64,000 nt of DNA, from positions 1 to 64,000 of the IMG/VR virus record IMGVR_UViG_3300031707_002920. One strand, 5' to 3'. Source of the DNA: a virus. Position 1 is the first letter of the stretch. Every line of letters begins with the position of its first letter. Both the position numbers and the translations under genes were made by a program. This document shows, piece by piece, positions 5,953 to 31,207 of this stretch. The notes beneath the pieces were generated by a model. It was not told where the DNA came from. It saw only the letters and a program-made list of their open reading frames with translations, and did no database searches.

Positions 5953-5957
5953 TCTTC

Positions 5958-7088
5958 ATGAAGCATTTAGCCGTTATACAAGCTGAATTTGTTAAAACAG
6001 CGAGAAAGTGGAAAGATTTGTCGTATGATGAGCAAAAGCGGTATATTAAGAGACATCCAAAAACTAAACGTAGATTGACGGCAAAGCCGAGAGCAAAAGG
6101 AGTTGAGACCGATTTTAATGAAATGATTGGTTCAAAACGAATAGTCGTCGGTGTGAAGAAGTTAAATAGACTGCTCGACAAAATTAATAAAAATTACATT
6201 AAAGTCCCAAGAGCAAAAGTTAGCTGGGTTTTAGAAAAAGCTTTAAACGGCACACCTCCGCGTAATAATCCTAAAACGTATGATTTGAGAGAGCACGATC
6301 TAACAGCACCGAAAACACAGAAAATAGTAAATGCTCTTAACAGACGAGTAAATAGATTAGTCAGATCGTCAAATAAACTTATCGCTAGACAAAGGTCATC
6401 AGGCGAGGCTGTTGAAGCAGTTAACAATTATATTAAGCAAAATTTTGTAGTGCTCAAGGACGCAAAACCTGTTAAAAGTCTTAGAGAAATGCGAGAATTT
6501 AAAGCGCCAAAAGTAAAAGTTGAAAAAGTTAAACGGCCAACAGGATCACATTTTAGTACAGGTGATCGAGTTAAACTTAGAAATGGCATCGAAGGAACTA
6601 TTGTTCGCATTAAATATGGACATAAATGGACGACGATAAACGTCACGACAGATGACGGCAAGCATTGGCATACTAAACATTCGGGCACGTATGGTCCCGG
6701 CTTAACATTTATAGGTAAAACTTCAGAAAAGGATGCCCAGAGGATAAAAAAGGTACGACAAGATTTTGATCAAGCTATTAACAATAGAAAACAACGACGC
6801 ACTGAAGAGGGTCGAGAAAAAATTAATTTAATGAGTATTCATCCAGGCGATACTATAATGATTAAAGGTCATGACTATAATTGGTCGGCAGAAGTTGTCA
6901 GTGTAGATTATCGCAAGGGCGGCGTTAGGATCAATCAACTGAGATCGAGAAGACAACGACCATCAATTTTTAACAGTGGATTTGGGTCTGCAGTTCTACA
7001 GCCAGGGCGTGTAGTGTCTCAACACTATAGATTTATACCTGCAGTTTATATCGTAAGTAAATCTGGCAAAGGAGCATCACATTCATGA
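5958..7088 (+). CDS. MKH-leader family protein with KOW-like motifs
   Basis: MKHLAVIQAEFVKTARKWKDLSYDEQKRYIKRHPKTKRRLTAKP; FSTGDRVKL, IHPGDTIMI. Confidence 0.8.
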   Translation: MKHLAVIQAEFVKTARKWKDLSYDEQKRYIKRHPKTKRRLTAKPRAKGVETDFNEMIGSKRIVVGVKKLNRLLDKINKNYIKVPRAKVSWVLEKALNGTPPRNNPKTYDLREHDLTAPKTQKIVNALNRRVNRLVRSSNKLIARQRSSGEAVEAVNNYIKQNFVVLKDAKPVKSLREMREFKAPKVKVEKVKRPTGSHFSTGDRVKLRNGIEGTIVRIKYGHKWTTINVTTDDGKHWHTKHSGTYGPGLTFIGKTSEKDAQRIKKVRQDFDQAINNRKQRRTEEGREKINLMSIHPGDTIMIKGHDYNWSAEVVSVDYRKGGVRINQLRSRRQRPSIFNSGFGSAVLQPGRVVSQHYRFIPAVYIVSKSGKGASHS

Positions 7089-8221
7089 AACATTTGGCAA
7101 CTATTCAGACAGAATTTTTGAAAGAAGCTCGAAAGTGGGACGATCTCTCTTATGAAGAACAGAAGGGCTATCTCTCGAGACATCCAAAAACAAAAAGAAG
7201 ATTAACAGCCAGACCTGAACAAGCTAGTGTACAGAAGTCACAATCTAAAGAATTAATCGGTAAACAGGCAATCTTTGATCTTCATACTGATAAAGTTAGA
7301 GCAGATTTTACTGCTGAAGATTTTGGTATAGACCAACAGACATTTCAAAAATTATTTGACCATCAAGGTCAGAAAGCAACAGTCGAAGCCATTGAGGTCG
7401 ACAATGGTAAAGTTGCTACAAGTTATTATAATATATCATTCGGAGATGGTTTTAAAGCTAATGCTATTAGCGGATCATATTTAACAGCTGTAGAACCAGA
7501 AACACAGCTTGTAGAATCGAAAAAATCTGGACCAGTTAAACAAAAATTGCCAGAAAAATTGAAAGAGCGCAAACTTTTTCCAGCAGACGCAATTAAAAGT
7601 TCTTTAGAATCACTAAATTTAGGAGGAGAGAGGTACGATTCAGATGAAAGAGAAAGAGTACATGTACAAAAAAATCATAAAGGCGAGGTCAAATATCTTG
7701 AAGTTGATTTTAGGCATTTAGGCACTTGGCATAGCAGGCCGGGCGAAGAAGACGATGATTATCCGAGATGGGATGAAGGGTCAGAGAAAAAATATACGAA
7801 AATATTTGAAAGTTGGGCGCGATCAAAACCGTGGTTTGATGAAGATACGATGAAAACATATGTGAGGACCGATGAAAAAGCATACGTGTCTTTTGGAATT
7901 AAAAAGCGTATGGAACCAGAAAAGAAAGAAGCTATAAAGAATTATTATACGAATTTAGTAGATGAAGTACGAAAAATAATTGATAACATTAAGCCTTTTA
8001 ATATGCGTGATATGTATCCAAGAATGCAAGAAATTTCAAGCAAATTAGGTGAAAATAGAGAATTAATGTCTCAGAAGAAAACGTTAGAAGACGATTATAA
8101 GATGATACTTGATAAATCAAACAATTTCTATACAGTAAAAGCTGCTGAAGGTGGATTAAATAAATTCATCATTGATGAATCTAGATTGAAAAACATCAAA
8201 GAAGAAATAGACAATAGTTAA
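7085..8221 (+). CDS. MKH-leader family protein
   Basis: MKHLATIQTEFLKEARKWDDLSYEEQKGYLSRHPKTKRRLTARP. Confidence 0.8.
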   Translation: MKHLATIQTEFLKEARKWDDLSYEEQKGYLSRHPKTKRRLTARPEQASVQKSQSKELIGKQAIFDLHTDKVRADFTAEDFGIDQQTFQKLFDHQGQKATVEAIEVDNGKVATSYYNISFGDGFKANAISGSYLTAVEPETQLVESKKSGPVKQKLPEKLKERKLFPADAIKSSLESLNLGGERYDSDERERVHVQKNHKGEVKYLEVDFRHLGTWHSRPGEEDDDYPRWDEGSEKKYTKIFESWARSKPWFDEDTMKTYVRTDEKAYVSFGIKKRMEPEKKEAIKNYYTNLVDEVRKIIDNIKPFNMRDMYPRMQEISSKLGENRELMSQKKTLEDDYKMILDKSNNFYTVKAAEGGLNKFIIDESRLKNIKEEIDNS

Positions 8222-8260
8222 AAATCTTTGTCATCAATGATTGACGAGAAGTAAAGGCAT

Positions 8261-8896
8261 ATGAAACATGTAGCTATTATTCAATTAGAATTTTTGAAAA
8301 AAGCCCGTAATTGGGATGATCTGTCTTATGAAGAGCAAAAGGCATATATTTCAAGACATCCTAAGACTAAACGCAGGATAACAGCTAGATATAGAGTGGG
8401 TGATAAAGTTCATATAGTTAATAGTAAAGGAAATAAAGAACCTGCAACTATTATTCGGGATTTAGAGTCTTCTGGAGTTCCTGGTAAGTATAGGTTTAAA
8501 CTTGATAATGAAAATATTGAAGGTCATGCTGCTCCCGATGAATTAGTTAAGCGCGAGTCAGTTACATCATCGGTCAGCGAACAGCTAGTACAGAAACCGT
8601 TGAAAAAAAGCAAGTTCACATTTAAGACTGAGAAACCTACAGGCAAGTGGCGCAGTTTTGCAGAAGATCACAACGCTATTAAATTCAGTGGAAAAGAAGT
8701 CGGTCTCATTACATCTAAGCCGCATCGTATTAAATTGATGGTAGAAAAAGCAGACATAATGGAAGATAAAAATCCCAATTGTAGTTGGAAGTGGATAACG
8801 TTAAAACCAGAGTTTAATACGATAGACGAAGCTAAGAATTTTATTATTAACTATGCTGATGCAATTACAAGTAAATGGGAATTAAAAAGTTTATAA
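8261..8896 (+). CDS. MKH-leader family protein
   Basis: MKHVAIIQLEFLKKARNWDDLSYEEQKAYISRHPKTKRRITAR; YRVGDKVHI. Confidence 0.8.
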   Translation: MKHVAIIQLEFLKKARNWDDLSYEEQKAYISRHPKTKRRITARYRVGDKVHIVNSKGNKEPATIIRDLESSGVPGKYRFKLDNENIEGHAAPDELVKRESVTSSVSEQLVQKPLKKSKFTFKTEKPTGKWRSFAEDHNAIKFSGKEVGLITSKPHRIKLMVEKADIMEDKNPNCSWKWITLKPEFNTIDEAKNFIINYADAITSKWELKSL

Positions 8897-8912
8897 GAAA
8901 AGAAAGGTATTT

Positions 8913-9365
8913 ATGAAATATGCAACTATTGTTCAATCAGAATTTGTAAAAGAAGCTCGTAAATGGAATGAATTGTCTCGAAAAGAGCAACAAGCATATC
9001 TTAAAGCTCATCCAAAATCGAAAAAACGATTAACTGCTGGTCCAAAAATAGGTGATCCTGGTGAAAAACGGCCAAAATATGGACCTGATAGTGTTGAAGC
9101 AGAAAAAGCAAGAGAAAAACACATATCTGAATTGCAATTTGCTGCTAAACTAAAGAAAATTATTTCTGATAGCAAGTCTGATATTGAAAAATTTCAAAAA
9201 ACAGGTGAATTATCAGACGAATTATATGAAAATTTGTTTGACTATTTTACCATGGAAACAAAAGAAATGCCATACGGAACAGCAAAAGCTAGGACGGGCG
9301 ATCCTTATGAATGGATCAGTGATAAATTGAATGAGACTTTAAAAACGAAAGGAAGTATTCAATGA
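8913..9365 (+). CDS. MKH-leader family protein
   Basis: MKYATIVQSEFVKEARKWNELSRKEQQAYLKAHPKSKKRLTAGP. Confidence 0.8.
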   Translation: MKYATIVQSEFVKEARKWNELSRKEQQAYLKAHPKSKKRLTAGPKIGDPGEKRPKYGPDSVEAEKAREKHISELQFAAKLKKIISDSKSDIEKFQKTGELSDELYENLFDYFTMETKEMPYGTAKARTGDPYEWISDKLNETLKTKGSIQ

Positions 9366-9477
9366 ACATTTAGCCGTGATTCAAAATGAGTTCTTGAAAA
9401 TATCGGGTTTCATGGGATTAGGACATTGGAGTGACAGCGATGAAGCTGCTGATTTCTTCAACACTATTGAAAGGTGA
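9362..9477 (+). pseudogene. Frameshifted/truncated MKH-leader family gene
   Basis: ATG-AA-CAT-TTA-GCC-GTG-ATT-CAA-AAT-GAG-TTC: one A missing from ATGAAACAT; shifted frame reads HLAVIQNEFLKISG. Confidence 0.65.
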
Positions 9478-9482
9478 AAGAT

Positions 9483-9771
9483 ATGAAACATCTTACAGTA
9501 ATTCAAACTGAGTTTTTGAAAGAAGCACGCAAGTGGGACGATCTCGATCAAGATCAACAACGCGCTTATCTAAAACGTCATCCAAAAAGTAATCATGGTA
9601 ACTGCTGCTATAATTGTAGCAATCGCAATCAGTCAGAAACCAGCAGCAAAGCAGTCAGTGACAGCTATTTCAAAAGCTGACACTGTCACGACTGTTGTTA
9701 AAGACACTACTAAAGTTGTCAACGACACAACAAAAGTTATTAAGGTCAAAGAAGTAGCTAAAAAGAAGTAA
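9483..9771 (+). pseudogene. MKH-leader N-terminus joined out of frame to a signal-peptide-type gene remnant
   Basis: MKHLTVIQTEF...LKRHPKS, then another frame reads VIMVTAAIIVAIAISQKPAAK...KDTTKVVNDTTK...KKK*. Confidence 0.55.
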
Positions 9772-9867: not shown

Positions 9868-9993
9868 ATGCAAACCTTACAACTTCACACCACGCTATCA
9901 ATAGAACGTGTAAAGCACGTGGTAATGGGGTTGTCCTATTTATCATACCTTGGAAAAGAAGAAGGTTATGATATATGGACAGGCGGGGTTTGA
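9868..9993 (+). CDS. Leader peptide 1 (41 aa) of the tRNA operon 1 attenuator
   Basis: GGAG RBS; MQTLQLHTTLSIERVKHVVMGLSYLSYLGKEEGYDIWTGGV*; stop overlaps the antiterminator strand. Confidence 0.8.
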   Translation: MQTLQLHTTLSIERVKHVVMGLSYLSYLGKEEGYDIWTGGV

Positions 9994-10063
9994 GTGTATT
10001 AAAAAACAAAAATTAGCATACACAAAAAACCCCGCCGATCTAACCAATCGACGGGGTTTTTTT
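9982..10063 (+). terminator. Attenuator 1: antiterminator plus intrinsic terminator
   Basis: GGCGGGGTTT (9982-9991) complements AAACCCCGCC (10027-10036), the 5' arm of terminator AAAAAACCCCGCCGAT-loop-ATCGACGGGGTTTTTTT. Confidence 0.85.
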
Positions 10064-10081
10064 ATTTTAGGGAGGCTCGCT

Positions 10082-10243
10082 ATGGAAAAACTTGAAGTCT
10101 CAAAGTGCTTCCTTCCTAAAGATGTATTTGATGAATTCATGAACATGGCAAAAGAAGACAAACAAAAATGGGGCCGGAAACCAAAACCAATCACAAAATT
10201 GGTATGGCCAAATGACAAGGAAATTATGGTGGATGTAGCTTAA
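10082..10243 (+). CDS. Small hypothetical protein, first ORF after attenuator 1
   Basis: GGGAGG RBS, MEKLEVSKC...; 3' end overlaps tRNA-His. Confidence 0.5.
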   Translation: MEKLEVSKCFLPKDVFDEFMNMAKEDKQKWGRKPKPITKLVWPNDKEIMVDVA

Positions 10244-10304
10244 CTGGCTAAAGCGCTGGATCGTGACTCCAGAGACTGTGTGGGTTCGAGTCCCATCATT
10301 CACC
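10228..10304 (+). tRNA. tRNA-His(GTG)
   Basis: G-1, acceptor GTGGATG/CATTCAC, anticodon arm CTGGA-TCGTGAC-TCCAG. Confidence 0.9.
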
Positions 10305-10365
10305 CTTAGATAGTTGTATGATTCAATTGACGATGATGATTAATGATCTTTGAAATTAAGTAAAT

Positions 10366-10439
10366 GCCTGCATAACTCAGATGGTCAGAGTACGATACTT
10401 TTAATATCGGAGTCGTCGGTTCAAATCCGACTGCAGGTA
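10366..10439 (+). tRNA. tRNA-Lys(TTT)
   Basis: CGATA-CTTTTAA-TATCG; T-arm GTCGG-TTCAAAT-CCGAC. Confidence 0.92.
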
Positions 10440-10512
10440 CTTACATTCTGATTGCACTTGCAAATGACTTATCTTTTTGTTTGATAGTTCATATCTATCT
10501 AAGGAGGTAGAT

Positions 10513-12261
10513 ATGAATGAATTACAAGAAGTTCAAGAAATTCGCAAGTTGTACAATGAAGGCGCATTTTTAGCGACTTTGCAAGAACGATTTGGTAAAC
10601 TTGTAGTTAAGCATGCATTGGCAGGTCATCGTCAAAGTAAAGGTGAACGTTGGCGATCACTTCGCAAGATGCATCCTGAAACTTTTAAGATGTCAGATGA
10701 AGCTAAACAACGAATTTCAATAGCAAGAAAGAAGTATTTAGACTTACACCCTGAAAAAGTACCATATAGATTAAATCATTCATCAAAGATAAGTTGGCCT
10801 GAAAAAATATTTGAAAGTGCACTTAAACGACATGATATTACAGGTTGGGTAAGAAATTACATGAATGGTCGATATGAATATGATTTTGCTTTTCCAATGT
10901 TGAAAATTGATGTTGAAATTGATGGCAATACACATTCACTAAGTAATGTAAAGAAGATTGATTGTGAGCGTGACAATTGGTCAAAGTCTCAAGGATGGAT
11001 TATATTACGATTTACAGCGAAACATGTACTAAGAGATGTAAATCAATGTATTGAATTGTTGCAAAAACAGATTAGTAATATGACATTAGATGTTAACGAT
11101 GAAATTAATGCGTCATTTTTAATGTTAAGAACAGCTAAAGATCGATATCGACACGCATTGAAAGAACGACGGCAACAACGCAGTGTTGAACGCGCTAAAA
11201 AAATTGAAGAGTTACAGCAAAATAGTATTCAGTTTAATGAAAATAAAAAAATTGCAGGTAATGAATTGTCATTAGAAACCATTTTAGATCGAGTAAATAT
11301 AGCTAAAAATAATGATCAAGAAAAACGAGGATACGTATCTGAGTTATCTGAATTGTGGAAAGTGTCTAGTACACAAGTTCGAAGATTTTTAAAGCAATAC
11401 TGTCCGGAATGCTTAAGATTACGTACTCGTGTTTTTTGTGAACAAGCTAAGTTTATTAAAACTGATGAGGTTGTTAAACAGATCATAAGTGACTATAAAA
11501 ATGGCGATTCTTTAAGTCAAATTTGTAAAAAATATATTGTATTAAAAAAAATTGTTAAGCAGTTATTACTAGATAATCATGTGGAAATAAGAGATAAAAG
11601 ATATTATGCTAAAAGAACACTAGCTGATCGACATCAAAAATATCTAATGTCATATAGTGACAAACTTACTGATATTGTCAAAGATCATGATAATGGTTGT
11701 ACAATTAGAGAACTTAGAAGAAAATACAATATCAGTAGAACGATAATTAAAAAATTGTTGAACTTGTCAGACAGTGATTATAAAAACCAATTACAACAAG
11801 AAAAATTAGATAAACTAGAAGCTAAGATCATACAAAAACAAAAGCTGCAAAATCAAATTAAGCAGCAGCAGCAGCGATTGTTAAAACAGAAAAGAAAACT
11901 AAAACGAAGATTAAGTCCTGAAAATCAACAAAAAATGCAAGATCGAATAAATTGCATACTCAAATCTGAGATAGATTATTCATCTTTTGGATGGGTAAAT
12001 AAAGTTTCAGTTCTTATTGGACTATCACCACAAAAGGTTAATGGATGGATGAAAAAATACATGTCAGATTTTTATGACAGTAATTGTTTCAAAAAAAGAG
12101 ATAGAAAAAATATATTGTTATCTAATGACGTCATTGAACAAATAGTTAGTGATTACAAAAATAGCAAATCATTACGTCAAATTTGCAAAAAATATGACGT
12201 GTCAAAGAATGTTGTTAAACTATTGTTGTTAAGTCGTCACATTGAAATAAGAAGTCGATGA
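10513..12261 (+). CDS. DUF559/Vsr-like putative homing endonuclease with repeated HTH-like modules
   Basis: YEYDFAF..KIDVEIDGNTH..D.ERD....QGW.ILRF; repeated IxxDYKNxxSLxQICKKY motif; AAGGAGG RBS. Confidence 0.8.
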   Translation: MNELQEVQEIRKLYNEGAFLATLQERFGKLVVKHALAGHRQSKGERWRSLRKMHPETFKMSDEAKQRISIARKKYLDLHPEKVPYRLNHSSKISWPEKIFESALKRHDITGWVRNYMNGRYEYDFAFPMLKIDVEIDGNTHSLSNVKKIDCERDNWSKSQGWIILRFTAKHVLRDVNQCIELLQKQISNMTLDVNDEINASFLMLRTAKDRYRHALKERRQQRSVERAKKIEELQQNSIQFNENKKIAGNELSLETILDRVNIAKNNDQEKRGYVSELSELWKVSSTQVRRFLKQYCPECLRLRTRVFCEQAKFIKTDEVVKQIISDYKNGDSLSQICKKYIVLKKIVKQLLLDNHVEIRDKRYYAKRTLADRHQKYLMSYSDKLTDIVKDHDNGCTIRELRRKYNISRTIIKKLLNLSDSDYKNQLQQEKLDKLEAKIIQKQKLQNQIKQQQQRLLKQKRKLKRRLSPENQQKMQDRINCILKSEIDYSSFGWVNKVSVLIGLSPQKVNGWMKKYMSDFYDSNCFKKRDRKNILLSNDVIEQIVSDYKNSKSLRQICKKYDVSKNVVKLLLLSRHIEIRSR

Positions 12262-12367
12262 GTTAAAAAAGAAGCTAGCTGATGCGCGCAAAAAACGTCA
12301 GACAATTAGAGCACGGTTGGAGCGTTCTTTGACATTGATGATGAAGCACATTTGAGAACGTAATTAC

Positions 12368-12451
12368 GCGAGGATGGCGGAATTGGCAGACGCACTGGGC
12401 CTAGAACCCAGCGGAAGAAATTCCTTGCGAGTTCAAGTCTCGCTTCTCGCA
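12368..12451 (+). tRNA. tRNA-Leu(TAG)
   Basis: CTGGG-CCTAGAA-CCCAG, long variable arm. Confidence 0.92.
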
Positions 12452-12641
12452 GTTTATAGCAAGCAGTCATGGCATGATCTGAGACTACCATCTCTGAAAT
12501 CATAGGAGAATGGCAAGACTTGATTGTCAAACTGTTTGCAAAAAGGTCAAACTTAGAACTGGCAACGGTACCAGTTCCCAAGGCACTCGACAGTGTGCCG
12601 GCAGGACTGGTCGTAGGAATGATCAACTGTCAGAATTTCTT

Positions 12642-12724
12642 GCGGATGTGGCGGAACGGCAGACGCACTACTTTGAGGTGGTAGCGAGAGCAATCTCGTG
12701 TAGGTTCAAGTCCTATCATCCGCA
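12642..12724 (+). tRNA. tRNA-Leu(GAG)
   Basis: CTACT-TTGAGGT-GGTAG, long variable arm. Confidence 0.92.
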
Positions 12725-12755
12725 TTAATTGTAAATGATTGTAGAATAGCAATAC

Positions 12756-12829
12756 GGAGTATTAGTCTAGTGGTAAAACCACGGTTTGTCGAACCGTTGT
12801 CAGCAGTTCAATTCTGCTATACTCCGCCA
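12756..12829 (+). tRNA. tRNA-Asp(GTC)
   Basis: ACGGT-TTGTCGA-ACCGT; ends G-CCA. Confidence 0.88.
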
Positions 12830-12836
12830 GATTTTT

Positions 12837-12909
12837 GGGAGCGTCTGCTAATCTGGTAAGCTTCTAGTCTCCAAAACTAGCAATACACGTTCAAATCGTG
12901 TCGCTCCTG
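12837..12909 (+). tRNA. tRNA-Trp(CCA)
   Basis: CTAGT-CTCCAAA-ACTAG. Confidence 0.85.
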
Positions 12910-13016
12910 TAATTTTGAAAACTAAATGAAAGTGTTTGCTTAGTGGCACTACAGATCAATTTTTAACATCTAACAAAGGAGGTTCTCATGATGTAAAACT
13001 TAACAAGGAGTGCATC

Positions 13017-13271
13017 ATGAGCAGATCGTATCGTGAACCGTATTTCACGAGCACAGGTTCAAAGTATCGGACATTTGCGAAACGCTATGCGAACAGGATC
13101 GTGCGAAAGACAGACGATGTCCCTGACGGTAAGGCGTACCGTAAATTGTATTGTTCGTGGAACATTAGCGATTTCAACGTCCGGTGGAATCCAAAGCCAA
13201 GAATCTGGTGGATCAATGGCAAGCAGCAAGTCATTGAACCGACACCGGAGTGGAAAGCAAGAATGAAATGA
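13017..13271 (+). CDS. Small basic hypothetical phage protein
   Basis: AAGGAG RBS; MSRSYREPY...KRYANRIVRK...YRKLYCSWNISD. Confidence 0.65.
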   Translation: MSRSYREPYFTSTGSKYRTFAKRYANRIVRKTDDVPDGKAYRKLYCSWNISDFNVRWNPKPRIWWINGKQQVIEPTPEWKARMK

Positions 13272-13332
13272 GTTTAAAGGAGGTTATAATCAATCGTATA
13301 ATTGCATAAGATAAGTTTCTATAGAAATGAAT

Positions 13333-13633
13333 GCTCGGATGGTGGAATTGGTAGACACAAGGGACTCTGTAAAAGGGTCGTATATCTTGGAAACAAGTAT
13401 ATTGTAAACTGTCAAATTCGGTGGACGGTGTAAAATCTCAACGCCGAGCCAAGCTTTAGGTAACTAAAGAAGGTGTAGAGACTAAACGGCAGTCACCTAA
13501 AAGTTAACAGTTGACTCATGGTGAAGACATAGTCCAGACTACAAACAATGCTTGTTGACGATGAAAATCGTAGTAGTAAGTAAAATCCCTCGGGAGCGAT
13601 CCTATACCGGTTCAAGTCCGGTTCCGAGCACCA
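13333..13633 (+). tRNA. tRNA-Leu(TAA) interrupted by a group I intron
   Basis: Exons 13333-13366 and 13581-13633 join to AGGGA-CTTAAAA-TCCCT; ends ACCA. Confidence 0.92.
13367..13580 (+). ncRNA. Group I self-splicing intron (214 nt, no ORF)
   Basis: P1 GACT|CT...AGGGTC with U-G at the 5' splice site; core AAATTCGGTGGA, GCCGAGCCAAG, GTAGAGACTA, AAGACATAGTCC; terminal G. Confidence 0.9.
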
Positions 13634-13661
13634 TTATGAAAAGAAAATCTTTAATACTATT

Positions 13662-13735
13662 GCCGGATTGGTGTAATTGGTAAACACGCTTATTTCAAAA
13701 GTAAGTCTTTGAGAGTTCAAAACTCTCATCCGGTA
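13662..13735 (+). tRNA. tRNA-Leu(CAA), short variable loop
   Basis: CTTAT-TTCAAAA-GTAAG. Confidence 0.82.
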
Positions 13736-13744
13736 TATGAAAAT

Positions 13745-13826
13745 TGCGGCGTACAGTAGCGGTCTAACTGGGAAGCCTCATAAGCTTCTGGCGCAAGCCT
13801 CATGAGTTCAAATCTCATCGCCGCTA
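13745..13826 (+). tRNA. tRNA-Met(CAT), initiator-like 1:72 mismatch, extra variable arm
   Basis: GAAGC-CTCATAA-GCTTC; TGCGGCG/CGCCGCT. Confidence 0.82.
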
Positions 13827-13832
13827 ATTTAT

Positions 13833-13904
13833 GTGAGTGTAGCCTAGCGGTCAGGCACCTTCCTTCCAAGTAGGTATACGCGGGTTCGATCCCCGTCACT
13901 CACT
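13833..13904 (+). tRNA. tRNA-Gly(TCC)
   Basis: Anticodon loop CTTCCAA; GTGAGTG/CACTCAC. Confidence 0.88.
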
Positions 13905-13907
13905 TAT

Positions 13908-13984
13908 AGTGGCATCATCTAACGGCTTTAGGATGCGCGGTTTTCAACCACGCAATCGGGTTTCGACTACCCGTGCCACTACCA
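13908..13984 (+). tRNA. tRNA-Glu(TTC)
   Basis: Loop TTTTCAA; AGTGGCA/TGCCACT-ACCA. Confidence 0.85.
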
Positions 13985-13993
13985 AATAGAATT

Positions 13994-14077
13994 GGGTCGG
14001 TCGCATAGCGGCAAGTGCACCTGATTGTAGCTCAGGCGTCTTACGACTATTCGTTGGTTCGAGTCCAGCCCGGCCCA
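13994..14077 (+). tRNA. tRNA-Tyr(GTA)
   Basis: CCTGA-TTGTAGC-TCAGG, variable arm. Confidence 0.9.
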
Positions 14078-14179
14078 TTTACAATGTGACTCTCTTAGAG
14101 GGTCTTACACATACCCTAAAAAATTGAGAGAGTTATATTTTCACTTCACAAAATTTGAAGTTTATTTGATAAGTGCTAT

Positions 14180-14249
14180 GGTGAGTTCGGATAATGGTAG
14201 ATCGAGCGCCCGGAAGGGTATGGGAGTTCAAGTTTCTCACTCACCGCCA
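14180..14249 (+). pseudogene. tRNA-Ser-like element lacking an anticodon arm
   Basis: Acceptor GGTGAGT/ACTCACC-G-CCA, D- and T-arms present, only a GCCC-GGAA-GGGT hairpin between them. Confidence 0.65.
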
Positions 14250-14256
14250 AAATTAT

Positions 14257-14331
14257 GCGGCAGTCGCTAAGCGGTTTAGCACATCATTGCCTATGATGTC
14301 TACGCCAGTTCGATCCTGGTCTGCCGCACCA
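14257..14331 (+). tRNA. tRNA-Gly(GCC)
   Basis: CATCA-TTGCCTA-TGATG; ends ACCA. Confidence 0.9.
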
Positions 14332-14512
14332 TTTTTTCAAAGGAGGTATATGAATTATTTACTAACTATTAGAGTGCCTTTTACTGATATTGATGATGTC
14401 ATTGCCAGACAAAAAGCATTAGAAATTTTAGAAAAAGTAAATATTTCTAATGAAAAAGTGGTCAAATTACAAAGACTGCAAGAAAATGCAGAACCTGTCA
14501 AAGTTAATTTGT

Positions 14513-14588
14513 AGGCACTTATTTCAGCGGTAAGAATAGCTGGCTTACGTCCAGCAGGTCGACAGTTCGAGTCTGTCAGTGCCTACCA
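14513..14588 (+). tRNA. tRNA-Val(TAC)
   Basis: GCTGG-CTTACGT-CCAGC; ends ACCA. Confidence 0.92.
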
Positions 14589-14661
14589 TTTTTCAAAGTA
14601 AAAAGCAATAAGATAAATCTATTGATAAAACATGTATAGTATATGTCTATAACAAACTTTC

Positions 14662-14743
14662 AGGAGAGTATCGGTACACTCTTATAAGGTGTATACCCGT
14701 AATTGGTTCATTGAAAATGAGGGTTCAAGTCCCTCCTCTCCTA
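14662..14743 (+). tRNA. Atypical tRNA-Ile(TAT): no D-arm, long variable region
   Basis: AGGAGAG/CTCTCCT, ACACT-CTTATAA-GGTGT, GAGGG-TTCAAGT-CCCTC. Confidence 0.65.
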
Positions 14744-14788
14744 TAATTAAATTAAGATCATGGCAATAATAATTGATTATCACTTTAT

Positions 14789-15143
14789 GATCCTGTGAGC
14801 GAGAAAACCCACGGTTGAAACCGTGGGATGAAAGCGAGCCGTAATATATATTCTAAATGACAGGCTCAGTTCTGAACTCTTCAAGGCTGAAAGTGCCGGT
14901 TGAGTTCCATAAAAAAATGAACTGAATCACCGTCAAAAGCTCCTTGCTTCAGGGCCAGATGTAAAAAGCACCACGGTATCATCCTGGTTTTCTGGAAAAG
15001 CACTCTGATTCGGAGATTCATAAAATTTCGTTTCATACCCAGACTCGGGCTGGAGTCTGTTGAGCGACCAGTGCCCCGCCGCAAGGCGAAAGCACCGGTG
15101 AGGGCTCATAGAAGCCCACGACTTTAGTCGTGGGAGCAGTCAC
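14789..15143 (+). mobile_element. ORF-less IS605-family derivative (PATE/MITE-like), copy A
   Basis: Inserted after TTAT; left hairpin CCCACGGTT-GA-AACCGTGGG; right part closely matches 66-168, ends TCAC. Confidence 0.88.
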
Positions 15144-15259
15144 TATATTTACAATACCATTCAGTCTTCGATTTGTCTTTGATAATTGAATTTAGAATAT
15201 GTGAAAGAGTTAGATGATGATGCTATTCTTGAAAGATTAAATATTGATGATGAACTAAA

Positions 15260-15345
15260 GGAAGAGTCGCTCAATGGTAGAGCATCTGATTTGAGATCAG
15301 ACGCCTCAAAAGGGTGTGCGGGTTCAAGTCCTGCCTCTTCCGCCA
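15260..15345 (+). tRNA. tRNA-Ser(TGA)
   Basis: TCTGA-TTTGAGA-TCAGA, long variable arm, G-CCA. Confidence 0.92.
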
Positions 15346-15616
15346 ATCTTGGGCCTGTGGCTTAGTTGGTTAATGAATGGTAATGTTTAAACAAAGGACT
15401 AGATATGAGTTTTGGATTGAAGAAGTCTTTTGGCAGGTTCGTTAAAAAACTACCGGATTTTATTGTAATAAAATATGATGACTATTTTAACGTTATTTAT
15501 AAAGATGGGCGTCAAAGCAATGAATATGAAACAGACAGATATATTTTTGGCAAAAGTGATGAAGGATTTTATATGATAAATAAGAAAGCAATAGTTTATG
15601 GAATAAGAGTATAAGT

Positions 15617-15665
15617 GGAGAGTTAGCATAACTGGTAATGCAGTCGATTTGAGGTCGACCGCTCA
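15617..15665 (+). pseudogene. 5' half of a second tRNA-Ser(TGA), truncated
   Basis: GGAGAGTTAGCATAACTGGTAATGCA-GTCGA-TTTGAGG-TCGAC, no T-arm. Confidence 0.55.
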
Positions 15666-15910
15666 TGTTTGATAAGACATTTGAACTTTTTGATCGAACC
15701 ATGCAAATGCTTGACAGAGAAATGAAATGTCTGTTTATGCGCCCTACGAAGTCGAATACGAGGGTGAGGGTTAAGATCAAGGCTGGATCTAAAGTTTATG
15801 TGAATGGTGTGATGGTTGAATTAGTTAATGATGCTATTGTTTTAACATCTGAACTTGACAGATTGATGAATACGAAAAAATAAATGAATTTAAAAAAGGT
15901 GGATTGAAAA

Positions 15911-16252
15911 ATGTTAGATGAGTTTTTGAAAACTGATAATACAGTAAAAGTCGCATTATATAAAATTGGTCGAGTGCTAGGATTTTTTTCGGAAAATTCT
16001 TTTAAGCAATACGAATATCTGTTAAATGACGAGTCAGATAACGATGTTCGAAAGTTGTTATCGTCTATTTTAGCCAGTTTGACTCACTGTGGTGCAATTG
16101 TATCGACTGACGAAAATCGAGTGAAGTGGAATGAAAATTTTAAAATCGATTCATATTTAGAGATGATGCAGCAGAAAAAAGCTTCACGAGCTAGACAAGC
16201 ACAAGACAGAGCAGCTATTAAGAATATATTGCGAAAATTTGCAACTGAATGA
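15911..16252 (+). CDS. Hypothetical protein
   Basis: ORF with AGGTGG RBS. Confidence 0.6.
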   Translation: MLDEFLKTDNTVKVALYKIGRVLGFFSENSFKQYEYLLNDESDNDVRKLLSSILASLTHCGAIVSTDENRVKWNENFKIDSYLEMMQQKKASRARQAQDRAAIKNILRKFATE

Positions 16253-16572
16253 CGAGTAATAAACAATCCTGACGGATTAGTGCTCGAAATTAAATGCGTC
16301 GATTTAGATTCATTGTTTATTGTGACGATTGTAAAGAAAAATAATAAATGGGAGCACGTATTTAAGTGTGGACATGAAATCGTGTGGAGATGCAATAGTA
16401 GAATAGGTGATCAGACAGTTTTTGAGGCTGATTCACAGCTAATTAAGAACGACAGTACACAAAATTTGTGTTATTTATACGATGATGGCACAATTAGTAT
16501 AGATCGAGATTCTTAAGTGGAACAGAAATAGCATAAGAATGATGTCTCTTACTCAAAACGCTAACAGAAATT

Positions 16573-16656
16573 GCGGGAATGGTGGAATTGGTAAACACGT
16601 CGGTTTTAGAAGTCGATGGGAGAAATCCTTTGCAGGTTCAAGTCCTGTTTCCCGCA
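16573..16656 (+). tRNA. tRNA-Leu(TAG), second copy
   Basis: Loop TTTAGAA, long variable arm. Confidence 0.9.
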
Positions 16657-16669
16657 CTAGAGATTAAAT

Positions 16670-17194
16670 ATGCTATGTCCAATATGTAATTCTGATACTT
16701 TGGTCATTAATTCGAGGGTAGTAAATGCTTGTTGTAATGTCAGGCGTCGAAGAAAATGTATAAAGTGCGATTATCGATTCAATACCATAGAACGAGTAAG
16801 AATAGATATGAATGAAAAGTTAAAACAAGTTATCGTGATGCGATCAGACCTTAATATGAGAAAAGGCAAAATGATTGTACAGGGCGCGCATGCATCAATG
16901 AAAATATTTTTTGATAGAGTCGAATCAATTAATAAGAAGATGTGTTTGAATATTACGCAGGCAATGATGGAGTGGATGACTGGTATTTTTACTAAAATTT
17001 GTGTGAAGGTCGACTCGGAACGAGAGTTACTTGAGATTAGAGAGAAAGCTATTTCTTTAGGATTACCAGTAGCTTTGATTGAAGACAACGGGTTGACTGA
17101 ATTTAAAGGAGTAGTAACAAAAACTTGTCTTGCAATAGGGCCTGATGATTCGGAAAAAATTGATCAAGTTACAGGTCATTTACAATTATTGTAA
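16670..17194 (+). CDS. pth2: NrdR-type Zn ribbon in frame with peptidyl-tRNA hydrolase 2
   Basis: MLCPIC..VINSR...VRRRRKCIKC.YRFNTIE; KQVIVMRSDLNMRKGK...QGAHA, DNGLTEF, AIGP, VTGHLQLL. Confidence 0.9.
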   Translation: MLCPICNSDTLVINSRVVNACCNVRRRRKCIKCDYRFNTIERVRIDMNEKLKQVIVMRSDLNMRKGKMIVQGAHASMKIFFDRVESINKKMCLNITQAMMEWMTGIFTKICVKVDSERELLEIREKAISLGLPVALIEDNGLTEFKGVVTKTCLAIGPDDSEKIDQVTGHLQLL

Positions 17195-21025: not shown

Positions 21026-21186
21026 AGTGCTATGCTAAAATACTTCAAGGTTGTTCGTCTTGAACGAGAGGTTGCCGCCTTAAAAGCGGAGTTGACTATG
21101 ATTCTTCTTTTATAATTTGATAATTTTATATTATTGTGAGCTTAATCTACGATATTTAACGTGATTATTAATTTAAAAGGATTATC

Positions 21187-21282
21187 ATGCATTTATTTAT
21201 ACGCACATCTACATGGCTTTATAATACTGCCAGTGATATGCGTTCAAATTTCTGTGCAACAATTAGAATGGAAATAACATAA
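21187..21282 (+). CDS. Leader peptide 2 (31 aa) of the tRNA operon 2 attenuator
   Basis: AAAGGA RBS; MHLFIRTSTWLYNTASDMRSNFCATIRMEIT*. Confidence 0.78.
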   Translation: MHLFIRTSTWLYNTASDMRSNFCATIRMEIT

Positions 21283-21284
21283 TT

Positions 21285-21344
21285 GGCGAGGCTTAAAATA
21301 ATATTAAAAAAGCCTCGCTGATCAAAAGTCAACGAGGCTTTTTT
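21285..21344 (+). terminator. Attenuator 2: antiterminator plus intrinsic terminator
   Basis: GGCGAGGCTT (21285-21294) complements AAGCCTCGCT of terminator AAAAAAGCCTCGCTGA-loop-TCAACGAGGCTTTTTT. Confidence 0.85.
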
Positions 21345-21356
21345 AATGCCGAAATT

Positions 21357-21429
21357 GTTGACGTAGCTAAATTGGTATAGCGTTGCTCTCATGAAGCAAA
21401 GTGTAGTGGTTCGAGTCCACTCGTCAACA
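21357..21429 (+). tRNA. tRNA-Met/Ile2(CAT)
   Basis: TTGCT-CTCATGA-AGCAA. Confidence 0.88.
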
Positions 21430-21458
21430 TTAGTAATTTAAGTAGATTGGATAAATTT

Positions 21459-22052
21459 ATGATGGAGTCATTAGTATTAAATAGTTTTGCTATTCCAGTA
21501 TCTGTTATACCTATCAAGAGAGCTATCACGCTCGTCGCGACCAAAAAAGCAATTGCTCTTGCCAATTATGAAAATACTATAATACGGTCGTCGGGAATTG
21601 TCATACACGATTCGATACTCATGAGGTCTAAAAATTCTTTGATATCTATGGCTGTACCGTCTGTAATTCAGTGCGTACATTCCAACTACATGCCAAAAAA
21701 GTATGTCAATGTATTGCCGTTTAGCAGGCAGAATGTCTATATCAGAGACGGTGGATGTTGCATGTATTGCGGTAGAAAAGTTTCTATTTCTAATTTTACG
21801 TTCGATCACGTTATTCCACGGTGTGATGGTGGAAAAACTACTTGGGACAATATTGTTATCAGTTGTATGAAGTGCAATGCTCAAAAGGGTCGCAGGTCAG
21901 TTAATAATTACAAGAGAGCATTGATTCGCAAACCATTTGCTCCGAGATTAGATAAGGCAGCTCCGGCTCATTTGGTTAGTAAAATAGCTGCTGAAATTCC
22001 ACATAAGACGTGGATCGATTACATTTATTGGAACGTAATATTAGAGCCGTAG
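21459..22052 (+). CDS. HNH endonuclease
   Basis: FSRQNVYIRDGGCCMYCG...TFDHVIPR..GG.TTWDN...C..CN..KG. Confidence 0.92.
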   Translation: MMESLVLNSFAIPVSVIPIKRAITLVATKKAIALANYENTIIRSSGIVIHDSILMRSKNSLISMAVPSVIQCVHSNYMPKKYVNVLPFSRQNVYIRDGGCCMYCGRKVSISNFTFDHVIPRCDGGKTTWDNIVISCMKCNAQKGRRSVNNYKRALIRKPFAPRLDKAAPAHLVSKIAAEIPHKTWIDYIYWNVILEP

Positions 22053-22058: not shown

Positions 22059-22130
22059 GCTGGTATAGCTCAATCGTAGAGCAATGGTATTGTAAACCAT
22101 AGGTTGTGGGTTCAAGTCCTGCTACCAGCT
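22059..22130 (+). tRNA. tRNA-Thr(TGT)
   Basis: ATGGT-ATTGTAA-ACCAT. Confidence 0.9.
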
Positions 22131-22519: not shown

Positions 22520-22596
22520 AGGCGTATCATCCAAACGGTTCAGGATACATGTCTGATAAGCATGAAATAGTAGTTCAATTCTACTTACGCCTACCA
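22520..22596 (+). tRNA. tRNA-Ile(GAT)
   Basis: CATGT-CTGATAA-GCATG; ends ACCA. Confidence 0.9.
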
Positions 22597-22830: not shown

Positions 22831-22903
22831 GGGGCTATAGCTCAATTGGGAGAGCCGGTGCTTTGCAGGCACAAGGTTGGAGGTTCAAATCCTCTTAGCT
22901 CCA
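22831..22903 (+). tRNA. tRNA-Ala(TGC)
   Basis: GGGGCTA/TAGCTCC with G3-U70; loop TTTGCAG. Confidence 0.92.
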
Positions 22904-23716: not shown

Positions 23717-23791
23717 GCCCCAGTAGCTCAGCTTGGATAGAGCCACAGTTTTCTAAACTGTACGTCATCGGTTCGAGTCCGATCTGGGGTT
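23717..23791 (+). tRNA. tRNA-Arg(TCT)
   Basis: ACAGT-TTTCTAA-ACTGT. Confidence 0.92.
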
Positions 23792-25013: not shown

Positions 25014-25716
25014 ATGAAACATCTAATGATAGTCCAAAAAGAATTCTTGAAATATGCGTCAGACGGTCGTTCTATTCCTGTGTCGCAACTTGGCATTCAT
25101 AGACCTGGATCATGGTGGGATGATTTATGATCCTGTGAGCGAGAAAACCCACGGTTTCAACCGTGGGATGAAAGCGAACCAGTACACATAAAAAATAAAT
25201 TACATTCTTTGTGAAAAATAATGTATATTTAAATCCAGACAGAGATTGTTCCTCAAAGCTGAAAATGCTGGTTGAACACTAAAAATCTCTATCTACTTTT
25301 CTCCTTGCTTCAGACCTAATAAATCTGATTCGGAGATCTCAAAGTTTTTAAAAGAACTCAGACTCGGGCTGGAGTCTGTTGAGCGACCCCCGCATCGCCG
25401 CAAGGCGGCAGCACGGGTGAGGGCTCATAGAAGCCCACGACTTTAGTCGTGGGAGCAGTCACCTTATAAAGAACAGATAGCATATCTTAGAAGACATCCA
25501 AAATCATTCTGGAAACGATATCTAAAAAAACCACCTAAAGAAGAAACTATTGAACTTTCTACTGAGCCTTTAATTCAACCTACAGACTATTATGGAGAAG
25601 ATTGGGACAGTCTAACACGAAAAGAACAACTACAGGAATTAGCTTATCATCAACGAAAACAACTTAAAAAACGACAAAACCTTCAACGGCAACTTATACT
25701 AAAGGGCATGATTTAA
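25014..25716 (+). pseudogene. MKH-leader family gene interrupted by IS605 derivative B
   Basis: Removing 25129-25462 restores a 122-aa ORF MKHLMIVQKEFLKYA...WWDDL|SYKEQIAYLRRHPKS. Confidence 0.88.
25129..25462 (+). mobile_element. ORF-less IS605-family derivative, copy B
   Basis: TTAT|GATCCTGTGAGCGAG left end, TCAC right end, same end hairpins as 14789-15143. Confidence 0.92.
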
Positions 25717-25890
25717 CTAAGAAATTAGGGTTAAAGTAATCTTAAGATTAACTTATAATTAATGGTTTTACTACGATATTTATAATGATTATTTATAATA
25801 GAAGTGGTGCTTAGAAGAAAATTTCAGAATTTACTTAATCTCAATTTTCTTCGAATTTCATCCTTCTTTTAAACTAAAAAAGGTTTTAAA

Positions 25891-25956
25891 ATGACGATTC
25901 GTAGGCAGCCGCAACAGCAACGTCGCCCTCAACCAGGACGGTGTATGCTCAAGTGA
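25891..25956 (+). CDS. Leader peptide 3 (21 aa, Arg/Gln/Pro-rich) of the tRNA operon 3 attenuator
   Basis: AAAGGT RBS; MTIRRQPQQQRRPQPGRCMLK*. Confidence 0.85.
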   Translation: MTIRRQPQQQRRPQPGRCMLK

Positions 25957-26016
25957 AGCTGTCGAATTAACGTTATATTTATTAAAGGCTTCACTTGAAA
26001 AAGTGGAGCCTTTTTT
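25951..26016 (+). terminator. Attenuator 3: antiterminator plus intrinsic terminator
   Basis: AAGTGAAGCT (contains the leader stop) complements GGCTTCACTT of terminator AAAGGCTTCACTT-GAAA-AAGTGGAGCCTTTTTT. Confidence 0.88.
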
Positions 26017-26032
26017 ATTGTTGAAATAAGCA

Positions 26033-26107
26033 CGGGACGTAATGCAGTGGGAGCATGCAACATTTGGGATGTTGTAGTCGTCGGTTCGAATCCGACCGTC
26101 CCGACCA
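26033..26107 (+). tRNA. tRNA-Pro(TGG)
   Basis: CAACA-TTTGGGA-TGTTG; ACCA. Confidence 0.92.
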
Positions 26108-26114
26108 ATTTTAT

Positions 26115-26189
26115 TGGAGTATAGCTCAATGATAGAGCACTGAGCTCTGGACTCAGATGTTTGAGGTTTAAATCCTCATACCCCAGCCA
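26115..26189 (+). tRNA. tRNA-Gln(CTG)
   Basis: CTGAG-CTCTGGA-CTCAG; GCCA. Confidence 0.88.
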
Positions 26190-26194
26190 AGTTT

Positions 26195-26267
26195 CGGGAT
26201 GTATTTCAAATGGTAGAATTTCTGATCCGGGATCAGAAGGTTAGCAGTTCAAGTCTGCTCATCCCGA
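26195..26267 (+). tRNA. tRNA-Pro(CGG)
   Basis: TCTGA-TCCGGGA-TCAGA (C33). Confidence 0.88.
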
Positions 26268-26291
26268 TTACATAAGTGTCTGATTGTAAAA

Positions 26292-26366
26292 CGGAGCGTG
26301 GCCCAGTCGGTTCAGGGCTCCTGAACGGGGTTCAGGAGATCGGCAGTTCGAATCTGCCCGCTCCGA
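26292..26366 (+). tRNA. tRNA-Pro(GGG)
   Basis: CCTGA-ACGGGGT-TCAGG (C33). Confidence 0.88.
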
Positions 26367-26371
26367 TTAAT

Positions 26372-26446
26372 GTTCCTATAGCTCAACTGGATTAGAGCAG
26401 TAGTTTCCGATACTACAGGTTAACCGTTCAAATCGGTTTAGGAACA
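26372..26446 (+). tRNA. tRNA-Arg(CCG)
   Basis: GTAGT-TTCCGAT-ACTAC. Confidence 0.9.
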
Positions 26447-26453
26447 ATAAATT

Positions 26454-26527
26454 AGGGGTGTAGCTCAGTTGGCTAGAGCAGCAGATTTTGATTCTGCGAG
26501 TCGTGGGTTCGAGTCCCTCCACCCCCA
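26454..26527 (+). tRNA. tRNA-Gln(TTG)
   Basis: GCAGA-TTTTGAT-TCTGC. Confidence 0.88.
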
Positions 26528-26534
26528 TTAACAT

Positions 26535-26608
26535 ATCTCTATAGCTCAATGGATTAGAGCAGCGATTTCCTACATCGCAGGTTGAGAGTTCAAATCTCTC
26601 TAGAGATA
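26535..26608 (+). tRNA. tRNA-Arg(CCT)
   Basis: GCGAT-TTCCTAC-ATCGC. Confidence 0.9.
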
Positions 26609-26623
26609 CTATTTCAATATGCT

Positions 26624-26684
26624 TGTTTCTTAATTCAACGGTAGAATGCAAGCTTTGAAACTTGACACAGAGGTTCGACACCTT
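26624..26684 (+). pseudogene. Degenerate tRNA (Gln-TTG-like) lacking the 3' acceptor strand
   Basis: ATTC-AACGGTA-GAAT D-arm, CAAG-CTTTGAAA-CTTG, GAGG-TTCGACA-CCTT. Confidence 0.5.
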
Positions 26685-26712
26685 TTGCTATTGCTATTTC
26701 TAGTAAAATGAT

Positions 26713-27036
26713 ATGAACAATGTAATTCAGAAAAACTTGTACAAAACTTGTACAAGATGTAAATTAACAAAACCTATTGAAGAGTTTTATAAACAGGTTC
26801 AAGGAATATATGGTTGCAAGAGTGAGTGTAAAGAGTGTTCAAAAAAATTAACAAGCGACGATTATCAAATACATAAAAAAGAAAGAAATGCTACAAAAAG
26901 AAAATGGTGCATAAGAAATAGGAAAAGATATAATGAAGTCCATTTAAAATGGGTACACGATAATAGAGAGCATTACAACGCTTATCATAGAGAGTATAAA
27001 CAAAGACAAGCTCGTTTATTTGTGCCTGTTTCCTAA
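26713..27036 (+). CDS. Zn-binding N-terminal module of an HNH-type homing endonuclease (catalytic domain absent)
   Basis: KTCTRCKLTKPIEEFY...CKEC. Confidence 0.65.
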   Translation: MNNVIQKNLYKTCTRCKLTKPIEEFYKQVQGIYGCKSECKECSKKLTSDDYQIHKKERNATKRKWCIRNRKRYNEVHLKWVHDNREHYNAYHREYKQRQARLFVPVS

Positions 27037-27094
27037 CAGGATAGGGGATCAGATTACGAATCTGATTGTGAGAGTTCGAATCTCTCCAGGCACA
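27022..27094 (+). tRNA. tRNA-Arg(ACG)
   Basis: TCAGA-TTACGAA-TCTGA. Confidence 0.9.
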
Positions 27095-27230
27095 CTTTTT
27101 TCTTCATAGTTAATCTCACCTGATTGGTAAATTAAATTTAAAATTTATCATAAGATCAAATTTGAAGAACTGATTAGTTCGTGAAAAATGTATAGAAATT
27201 TATAAATGTACTAAACTAAAAAGGATCTTT

Positions 27231-30795: not shown

Positions 30796-31207
30796 GGGGG
30801 TGTAAGGTTTCGACAGATTGGGTGAAGTAACAGTTGCATGTAGAGGAAATCACTGGTTGGCCTCTTAAATCATCCGGTGAACTTTAACTGCCAACACAGG
30901 TGCAGTTCTGGGTGCAAAATTCGCAACACAGTTTGCTGTTCTTTGCGGATTGACCTCCCAGGTCAGCGTTGCTTAATTTAAAAGCAACAGAGTTTTAGTG
31001 AGAGCCACGGTAGCTAAAACTTCAAGTAGTGTGGATAGGACAACCGAATCGCAGTAGAGAAGGGGACCGAAATGACGTCTGCGCCTCTTACTTGTGAAGC
31101 TTGCTGATTCTTAGTAATAAGATAAGAGGAAGTTACAGAATCAGATAAACATGTAGTAACTGTTATAGAGCACATTCTGGACAGGGGTTCAATTCCCCTC
31201 ACCTCCA
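30796..31207 (+). ncRNA. ssrA: tmRNA
   Basis: GGGGGTG...TTCGAC 5' end, GGGG-TTCAATT-CCCC-TCACCTCCA 3' end with G3-U70; tag ORF 30890-30976 after TTAACT. Confidence 0.92.

Follow-up and report, generated by a model that had tools for sequence, protein, structure and literature searches.

Among the leader peptides of enterobacterial amino-acid operons are the multivalent thrL, which senses Thr and Ile, and ilvL, which senses Ile, Val and Leu, and also trpL, hisL and pheL. Aminoacyl-tRNA synthetases are controlled by the pheST attenuator with its pheM leader and by T-boxes, which bind uncharged tRNA directly without a ribosome. To our knowledge, the regulated genes of all described leader-peptide attenuators are amino-acid biosynthesis or synthetase genes. 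The usual view of phage tRNA genes is that they are passengers, co-expressed constitutively as part of early or late transcription. The long tRNA array (trn operon) of Anabaena sp. PCC 7120 is silent until translation is impaired (PMC8421152) and is repressed by TrcR (PMC10272220). The 2021 paper on this array nowhere mentions a leader, an attenuator or a terminator (PMC8421152), and our full-text literature searches found nothing published on the control of tRNA genes by a leader peptide, be it in phages or in cells.

The window analysed here is the first 64 kb of an 85,903-nt IMG/VR virus contig with 36% G+C. ARAGORN and Rfam located 28 canonical tRNA genes on this contig, together with an intron-containing tRNA-Leu(TAA) and a tmRNA, all on the plus strand between 10229 and 31207. 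The tRNA genes form three blocks in the window, and upstream of each block lie a Shine-Dalgarno sequence, a short ORF and an intrinsic terminator. In all three cases the 5' arm of the terminator can instead pair with a segment at the stop codon of the ORF. The region 21147-21347, which contains leader 2, is in our view probably a leader-peptide attenuator that gates the five tRNA genes of operon 2 and is one of four such units in its clade, the tRNAs for Asn, Phe, Cys and Ser(GCT) constituting a separate operon 0 and not being relics of operon 2. The features of the locus are collected in Table 1.

Table 1. Features of the leader 2 attenuator and operon 2, the neighboring leaders and the contig start (window coordinates), and the split tRNA-Asn genes of the relatives (locus coordinates).
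Feature	Position	Strand	Source or remark
TnpB-like gene, 3' end (last 41 codons), at contig start	1..126	+	assembly break inside repeat
Leader 1 with attenuator	9868..10066	+	predicted to gate operon 1 (tRNAs 10229-16657)
Promoter-like motif CTAYG-N10-TGATTA before leader 2	21147..21167	+	
Shine-Dalgarno sequence AAGGA, 5 nt 5' of ATG	21177..21181	+	sequence
Leader 2 ORF, 31 codons and TAA (ATG 21187, TAA 21280-21282)	21187..21282	+	sequence
AAT TTC TGT (Asn, Phe, Cys), codons 21-23	21247..21255	+	non-cognate to operon 2
Sensor run GCA ACA ATT AGA ATG, codons 24-28	21256..21270	+	one codon per operon 2 tRNA
Segment 2, 5' arm of antiterminator	21283..21294	+	starts at the base after TAA
Intrinsic terminator hairpin, -22.2 kcal/mol	21303..21347	+	T-run 21339-21344
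Segment 3	21310..21321	+	common to antiterminator (with segment 2) and terminator (with segment 4)
tRNA with anticodon CAT (Met or Ile2), first of operon 2	21356..21430	+	ARAGORN, Rfam; not initiator-like
HNH endonuclease ORF between tRNA genes	21447..22052	+	
tRNA-Thr (TGT)	22059..22130	+	ARAGORN, Rfam
tRNA-Ile (GAT)	22520..22596	+	ARAGORN, Rfam
tRNA-Ala (TGC)	22831..22903	+	ARAGORN, Rfam
tRNA-Arg (TCT), final gene of operon 2	23717..23791	+	ARAGORN, Rfam
Leader 3 with attenuator	25891..26019	+	predicted to gate Pro/Gln/Arg operon (26033-27095)
Intron-split tRNA-Asn (GUU), G002	L128 16789-17062	-	
Intron-split tRNA-Asn (GUU), G003	L221 4337-4611	-	
Intron-split tRNA-Asn (GUU), G005	L236 about 2038-2310	+	

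A sequence-only reading of this DNA had matched leader 2 to operon 2. The leader ending that it quoted, AAT TTC TGT followed by the sensor run, GAA ATA ACA and TAA, was found exactly in the sequence, and codons 24-28 were indeed cognate to Ala-TGC, Thr-TGT, Ile-GAT, Arg-TCT and the CAT tRNA, one codon for each. With the codon usage of the contig itself, the probability that five consecutive codons serve each of the five tRNAs once is 2.8e-6, or 7.3e-5 per 30-codon leader, and not one of the 17,679 five-codon windows in the long ORFs of the contig contained such a run. The signal of leader 2 resides in this 3' run and not in the entire ORF: over the whole leader, 9 of 30 codons are cognate to operon 2 (P=0.04) and 9 are also cognate to operon 1, which makes leader 2 the least specific among the leaders. 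Leader 3 has 13 cognate codons out of 20 (P = 3e-9), and none of the 40 codons of leader 1 belongs to the Asn, Phe, Cys or AGY class (P = 0.002). From the comparison with the relatives described below, leader 2 is a well-supported candidate sensor for operon 2.

The promoter-like motif that precedes leader 2 occurs in 6 copies in the contig versus 0.29 expected. Three of these copies precede leaders 1, 2 and 3, and the same motif is present before most leaders of the related contigs G001, G002 and G003, which are introduced below. The remaining copies are located at window 40425 and 41428, which are two duplicated sites, and at contig position 80105. Between the promoter motif and the ribosome-binding site, window leader 3 (25830-25860) and leader 0 of the relative G005 (L236 1262-1290) share the element TTCGAATTTCATCC.

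The elements expected of an attenuator were found together at leader 2: a Shine-Dalgarno sequence with an ATG-initiated ORF, a terminator before the first gene, an antiterminator that excludes it, a stop codon beside segment 2 and codons that match the operon. Segment 2 and segment 3 form an antiterminator helix of 12 bp with -16.8 kcal/mol, and 9 nt separate the end of the terminator from the first tRNA gene (21356). The fold of the leader 2 region had a z value of -5.7 compared to shuffled sequences. The layout of stop codon and segment 2 is the same in leaders 0, 1 and 3, and in leaders 0 and 1 the 5' end of the ORF pairs with segment 2 in the minimum-energy folds. No convincing segment 1 to pair with segment 2 was found in leader 2, where the search yielded a single weak candidate of 7 bp. 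As drawn, a stall at any slow codon of the leader could induce operon 2. Rfam cmscan of the region 8000-33000 gave no match at E<=1 to the His, Leu, Thr, Trp or Phe leader families or to the T-box.

The following course of events is predicted from this arrangement. Transcription would begin at the clade-specific promoter motif, and the 31-codon leader would be translated by a ribosome. A ribosome at the stop codon of leader 2 must cover segment 2 because of its footprint. With fast read-through to the TAA the ribosome would thus stand on segment 2, segments 3 and 4 would form the terminator, and transcription would end those 9 nt short of the first tRNA gene. When the decoding tRNAs are scarce, the ribosome would stall on codons 24-28 (Ala GCA, Thr ACA, Ile ATT, Arg AGA, Met ATG) or ahead of them. 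Segment 2 would then be free to pair with segment 3, the terminator would not form, and the operon with exactly those five tRNAs would be transcribed. By this geometry, a ribosome whose A site holds codon 28 should leave segment 2 free, but not one that has reached codon 30 or 31 there; the sensor run would fill the final codons at which stalling could still tip the balance towards the antiterminator. Translation of the leader, stalling of the ribosome and switching in vivo are all deduced here from the sequence. Leader-peptide attenuators sense charged tRNA, so that amino-acid starvation would induce tRNA synthesis uselessly. By this reasoning the attenuator logic would pay off only if the tRNAs themselves are limiting, as with a codon-usage mismatch or with cleavage by host anticodon nucleases.

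Several other elements related to translation or of repetitive nature were observed in the window. In the tRNA-Leu(TAA) gene (window 13333-13633), about 214 nt are taken up by a group I intron (Rfam Intron_gpI, 63 bits). The gene was missed by default ARAGORN and provides a reader for the TTA codons of leaders 1 and 2. Between operons 1 and 2, at window 16670-17194, a PTH2 peptidyl-tRNA hydrolase is fused to an NrdR-type zinc ribbon, and the tmRNA follows operon 3 at window 30796-31207; the PTH2-NrdR fusion and the tmRNA represent further translation-rescue functions beside the tRNA operons. At window 355-9680 we observed a run of ORFs with an alike N-terminal module of about 45 residues, as seen from many tblastn cross-hits, and many copies of this module are also present in the relatives G001, G002, G003 and G005.

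These relatives were retrieved from IMG/VR in three ways: G001 (113 kb) and G002 (128 kb) via the PTH2 gene, G003 (416 kb) via a saccharopine-dehydrogenase-like gene, and G005 (126 kb) via the leader 0 pattern. The PTH2 protein of G001, G002 and G003 is 65-66% identical to the copy in the window. A search for related loci with window 2304-3770 found nothing, and megablast and blastn against GenBank phages gave generic tRNA matches only and no relative of the locus. Searches with 16-mers from the leader 2 run and from the start of leader 0 yielded mostly chance matches in genes without tRNAs, the real matches being G001 and G002 only, and the gapped leader 0 pattern yielded 19 matches, of which 4 were real (G001, G002, G003 and G005). 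A metagenome scan based on the PTH2 protein brought up, among close relatives, nothing but further G001-like contigs.

Leader 2 of G001 and G002 is too diverged over its 5' two-thirds to be aligned easily. Conservation was seen in the promoter-like motif, in the 15-nt sensor run and in the stems. The sole change within the sensor run is the synonymous GCA/GCG, which is still read by Ala-UGC. We compared the helices of the window with those of G001, G002 and G003. For the antiterminator, 97% of the cells were paired over 9 pairs, and 3 pairs were changed on both sides; for the terminator, 96% of the cells were paired over 13 pairs, and 2 pairs were changed on both sides. Slid controls showed only 31-58% paired cells. 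This covariation, which comes from four sequences with every double change contributed by G003, is supportive of the proposed switch, not conclusive.

The content of operon 2 was also compared. As in the window, operon 2 of G001 and G002 harbors Met, Thr, Ile, Ala and Arg-TCT tRNA genes, and in G001 two additional tRNA-like genes with ambiguous anticodons are located before Ala. In G003, operon 2 comprises Met, Thr, Ala, Ile and Val-TAC, and three Val codons follow one another in its leader 2. The window has Val-TAC in operon 1, and there it is leader 1 that contains the Val codons. The content of the leader thus appears to track the content of the operon, and we regard this as the strongest single argument that the leaders act as sensors for their own operons. 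ARAGORN assigned four-base anticodons (cttg, cttt) to tRNA-like genes at L127 7036-7185 in operon 2 of G001 and at L236 4499-4572 in operon 0 of G005. These could be frameshift-type tRNAs or miscalls.

A strict script for segments 2, 3 and 4 detected no attenuators in more distant PTH2-bearing phages. With a looser script based on codon enrichment, applied to the loci retrieved here, a few candidate leaders were obtained in more distant tRNA-rich phages. One of them, at L201 4373-4450 (P=2e-5 over 72 tests), precedes tRNAs for Asn, Pro, Ala, Tyr, Thr and Trp, another was found at L061 3342-3416 (P=1e-4), and further candidates were present in L022, L063 and L044. This suggests that the leader-gated design of tRNA operons may be widespread. 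At L201 4373-4510, L061 3342-3480 and L022 12807-12960, and also in L063 and L044, a codon-enriched short ORF is accompanied by a terminator-like hairpin. The L201 candidate leader has a perfect TTGACA-17-TATAAT promoter.

The sequence-only reading had further proposed that operon 2 once carried tRNAs for Asn, Phe, Cys and Ser(GCT) and lost them later. The absence of these tRNAs from the window was confirmed and extends to the full 85,903-nt contig, as determined by ARAGORN with and without intron mode and by Rfam. Since the completeness of the contig is 43% (CheckV), this absence is no evidence of loss. In G001, G002, G003 and G005 the genes for Phe-GAA, Asn-GUU, Ser-GCT and Cys-GCA lie together in operon 0, separate from operon 2. 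A placement of the Asn, Phe and Cys tRNAs in other operons of relatives had been named beforehand as refuting a loss from operon 2, and measured by this the proposal is refuted.

Operon 0 has its own promoter motif and its own leader of 27-31 codons. Most of leader 0 consists of codons for Asn, Phe, Ser(AGY), Cys and Thr; in G001, for example, 16 of 26 codons are cognate. The attenuator stems of operon 0 are unrelated to the stems of leader 2, and in G003 operon 0 is more than 220 kb away from the other operons. G001, G002 and G005 additionally have Thr-CGT and an amber-reading CTA tRNA in operon 0, and operon 0 of G003 has a second Cys tRNA. The CTA tRNA gene ends the operon at L126 5990-6063 in G001, at L128 14584-14658 (minus strand) in G002 and at L236 6098-6171 in G005. 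In G002, G003 and G005 the anticodon loop of tRNA-Asn(GUU) carries an intron about 200 nt long, and the gene of G001 is without an intron. ARAGORN in intron mode mislabels the split tRNA-Asn as Thr(tgt). The exon junction was read by eye as CU-GUU-AA in G002 and G005, and for G003 the Asn identity was deduced because the gene follows Phe and received the same intron call from ARAGORN.

The presence of operon 0 also changes the picture of how the leaders share the genetic code. It had been suggested that three leaders together covered all 20 amino acids. The lineage does have a codon-matched leader for Asn, Phe, Cys and Ser(GCT), and the idea of joint coverage holds to this extent, but the code is divided among four leaders and not among three. 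Coverage of 20 amino acids by three leaders with about 90 codons would not be remarkable.

The start of the window indicates where operon 0 of this phage may be located. The final 127 nt of G005 match window 1-127 with 100% identity; the match joins the very end of one contig to the very start of the other, and both contigs break inside one TnpB copy. An exact terminal overlap of 127 nt is the pattern produced when a de Bruijn assembly (k=127) breaks at a repeat. The copies of the TnpB repeat family at 15.0, 25.3 and 67.2-68.3 kb of the contig are 84-92% identical to the contig start. Upstream of its TnpB gene, G005 has leader 0 and the tRNAs Phe, Asn, Ser-GCT, Cys, Thr-CGT, an odd tRNA and the CTA tRNA. 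This overlap makes it most likely that the phage of the window has the Asn, Phe, Cys and Ser(GCT) tRNAs in a stretch adjoining the contig. We infer this join from a 127-nt exact terminal overlap inside a repeat family; by it, the most probable place of operon 0 in the same phage is 1.3-5.8 kb upstream of window base 1. Counted in window coordinates, the four supposedly lost tRNAs would be located about 4.8-5.8 kb and the CTA tRNA about 1.3 kb before base 1. In the DNA run that is probably from the source sample, contigs at least 80% similar to operon 0 of G002 occurred at two depths, one of them with a G005-like mismatch count; not being assignable to the phage of the window, they were left out of the argument.

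The TnpB family (IS605 OrfB / Cas12f-like) is represented by one full copy of 379 aa at contig 67201-68340 (L215 3201-4340) and by 3'-end remnants at 1-170 (contig start), 15004-15146 (in operon 1) and 25324-25462 (between operons 2 and 3). In G005, a TnpB copy with 89% identity directly follows operon 0.

The Asn, Phe and Cys codons of leader 2 still had to be explained. They most plausibly represent ordinary filler, with little conservation, in the variable part of the leader. Together with AGT, which is codon 16, codons of the Asn, Phe, Cys and AGY class make up 6 of the 30 codons versus a background of 14.2% (P=0.25). The Asn-Phe-Cys triplet directly adjoins the sensor run, and the strict post-hoc probability for this is about 3e-4; the adjacency may be a coincidence noticed after the fact or a genuine cross-sensor. 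At the position of AAT TTC TGT, both G001 and G002 have GCC CAT GAT.

One other reading is that the Asn, Phe and Cys codons are functional and that operon 2 is also induced by a shortage of operon 0 tRNAs, so that the operons are coupled. The low chance probability of the triplet would fit this, as would its location among the codons at which a stalled ribosome would not occupy segment 2 and the occurrence of some Asn, Phe or AGT codons in every leader 2 homologue. We nevertheless consider such cross-sensing unlikely: in no leader 2 is the Asn/Phe/Cys/AGY class above background, neither the position nor the identity of these codons is conserved, and Met, Thr, Ile, Ala and Arg tRNAs would not relieve a shortage of Asn, Phe or Cys tRNAs.

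Even less can be said for the view that an ancestral operon 2 encoded tRNA-Asn, -Phe, -Cys and -Ser(GCT) and that the codons in leader 2 remained after their loss. It draws on the same triplet, which abuts the cognate run, and on the absence of those tRNAs from the contig. Moreover, the distant L201 and L061 have Asn or Phe in leader-gated operons together with Ala/Thr or Met/Ile, which indicates that such a mix is possible. These points are outweighed by the relatives, in four of which exactly these tRNAs belong to a separate operon with a dedicated leader. The leader 2 of the relatives has Asn, Phe, Cys and AGT codons although their operon 2 is without those four tRNAs, and the triplet itself is replaced in G001 and G002. 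In the window, the content of such codons is at background, the interior of operon 2 shows no pseudo-tRNA or weak tRNA-like signal at E<=1 (Rfam) and hence no tRNA remnants, and operon 0 very probably adjoins the contig. A relic origin of these codons is therefore very improbable in our judgement.

Equally little credit goes to the assumption that there is no attenuation at all, the hairpin being the terminator of upstream genes and the short ORF a chance frame: short ORFs are plentiful in AT-rich DNA and the enrichment over the whole leader is weak (P = 0.04), but the five-codon run is highly improbable by chance and is kept while flanking codons drift, compensatory changes preserve the antiterminator, the same architecture with different stems is seen at every tRNA block in five contigs, and the leader follows the move of a gene between operons.

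With the attenuator reading of leader 2 and the assignment of the four tRNAs to operon 0, a more general proposal can be formulated, for which we see the arguments as evenly balanced. A clade of giant phages would split about 35 tRNA genes into four operons behind codon-matched leader attenuators, each operon being transcribed only when ribosomes stall at its codons; the Asn, Phe and Cys codons of leader 2 might couple operon 2 to shortages of operon 0 tRNAs. If true, this would constitute a closed supply-on-demand loop and a subset-by-subset answer to codon-usage mismatch or to host anticodon-nuclease defences. If the attenuators work as drawn, the ribosome would report which decoding capacity is short and the phage would replace exactly that capacity. 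A textbook mechanism would thereby be put to a new use, with a bearing on how giant phages cope with hosts of differing codon usage and with tRNA-cleaving defence systems.

The genes regulated by leader 2 would be five tRNA genes and an HNH endonuclease ORF, with no biosynthesis or synthetase gene among them. Since the regulated genes would be tRNA genes and no Rfam leader or T-box match was obtained, the leader 2 unit belongs to no described leader family. It comes nearest to attenuators of the multivalent thrL/ilvL type, which it resembles in having a short ORF with codons for several amino acids, a stop codon beside the 5' arm of the antiterminator and a competing intrinsic terminator, and also in that the product of the operon would relieve the stall. 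Unlike those, it is encoded by a phage, the regulated genes would be tRNA genes instead of genes for biosynthetic enzymes, there is one codon per tRNA instead of runs of one codon, and leader 2 has no clear segment 1. With the pheST attenuator and the T-box it would share that the state of a particular tRNA is sensed and that a terminator/antiterminator pair is switched before genes of the translation apparatus, whereas those systems govern aminoacyl-tRNA synthetases and no T-box match was found here. The nearest functional analogue in print is the trn array of Anabaena, which is cellular and controlled by a protein repressor, and with which the phage operons would have in common that accessory tRNAs are expressed on demand under translation stress.
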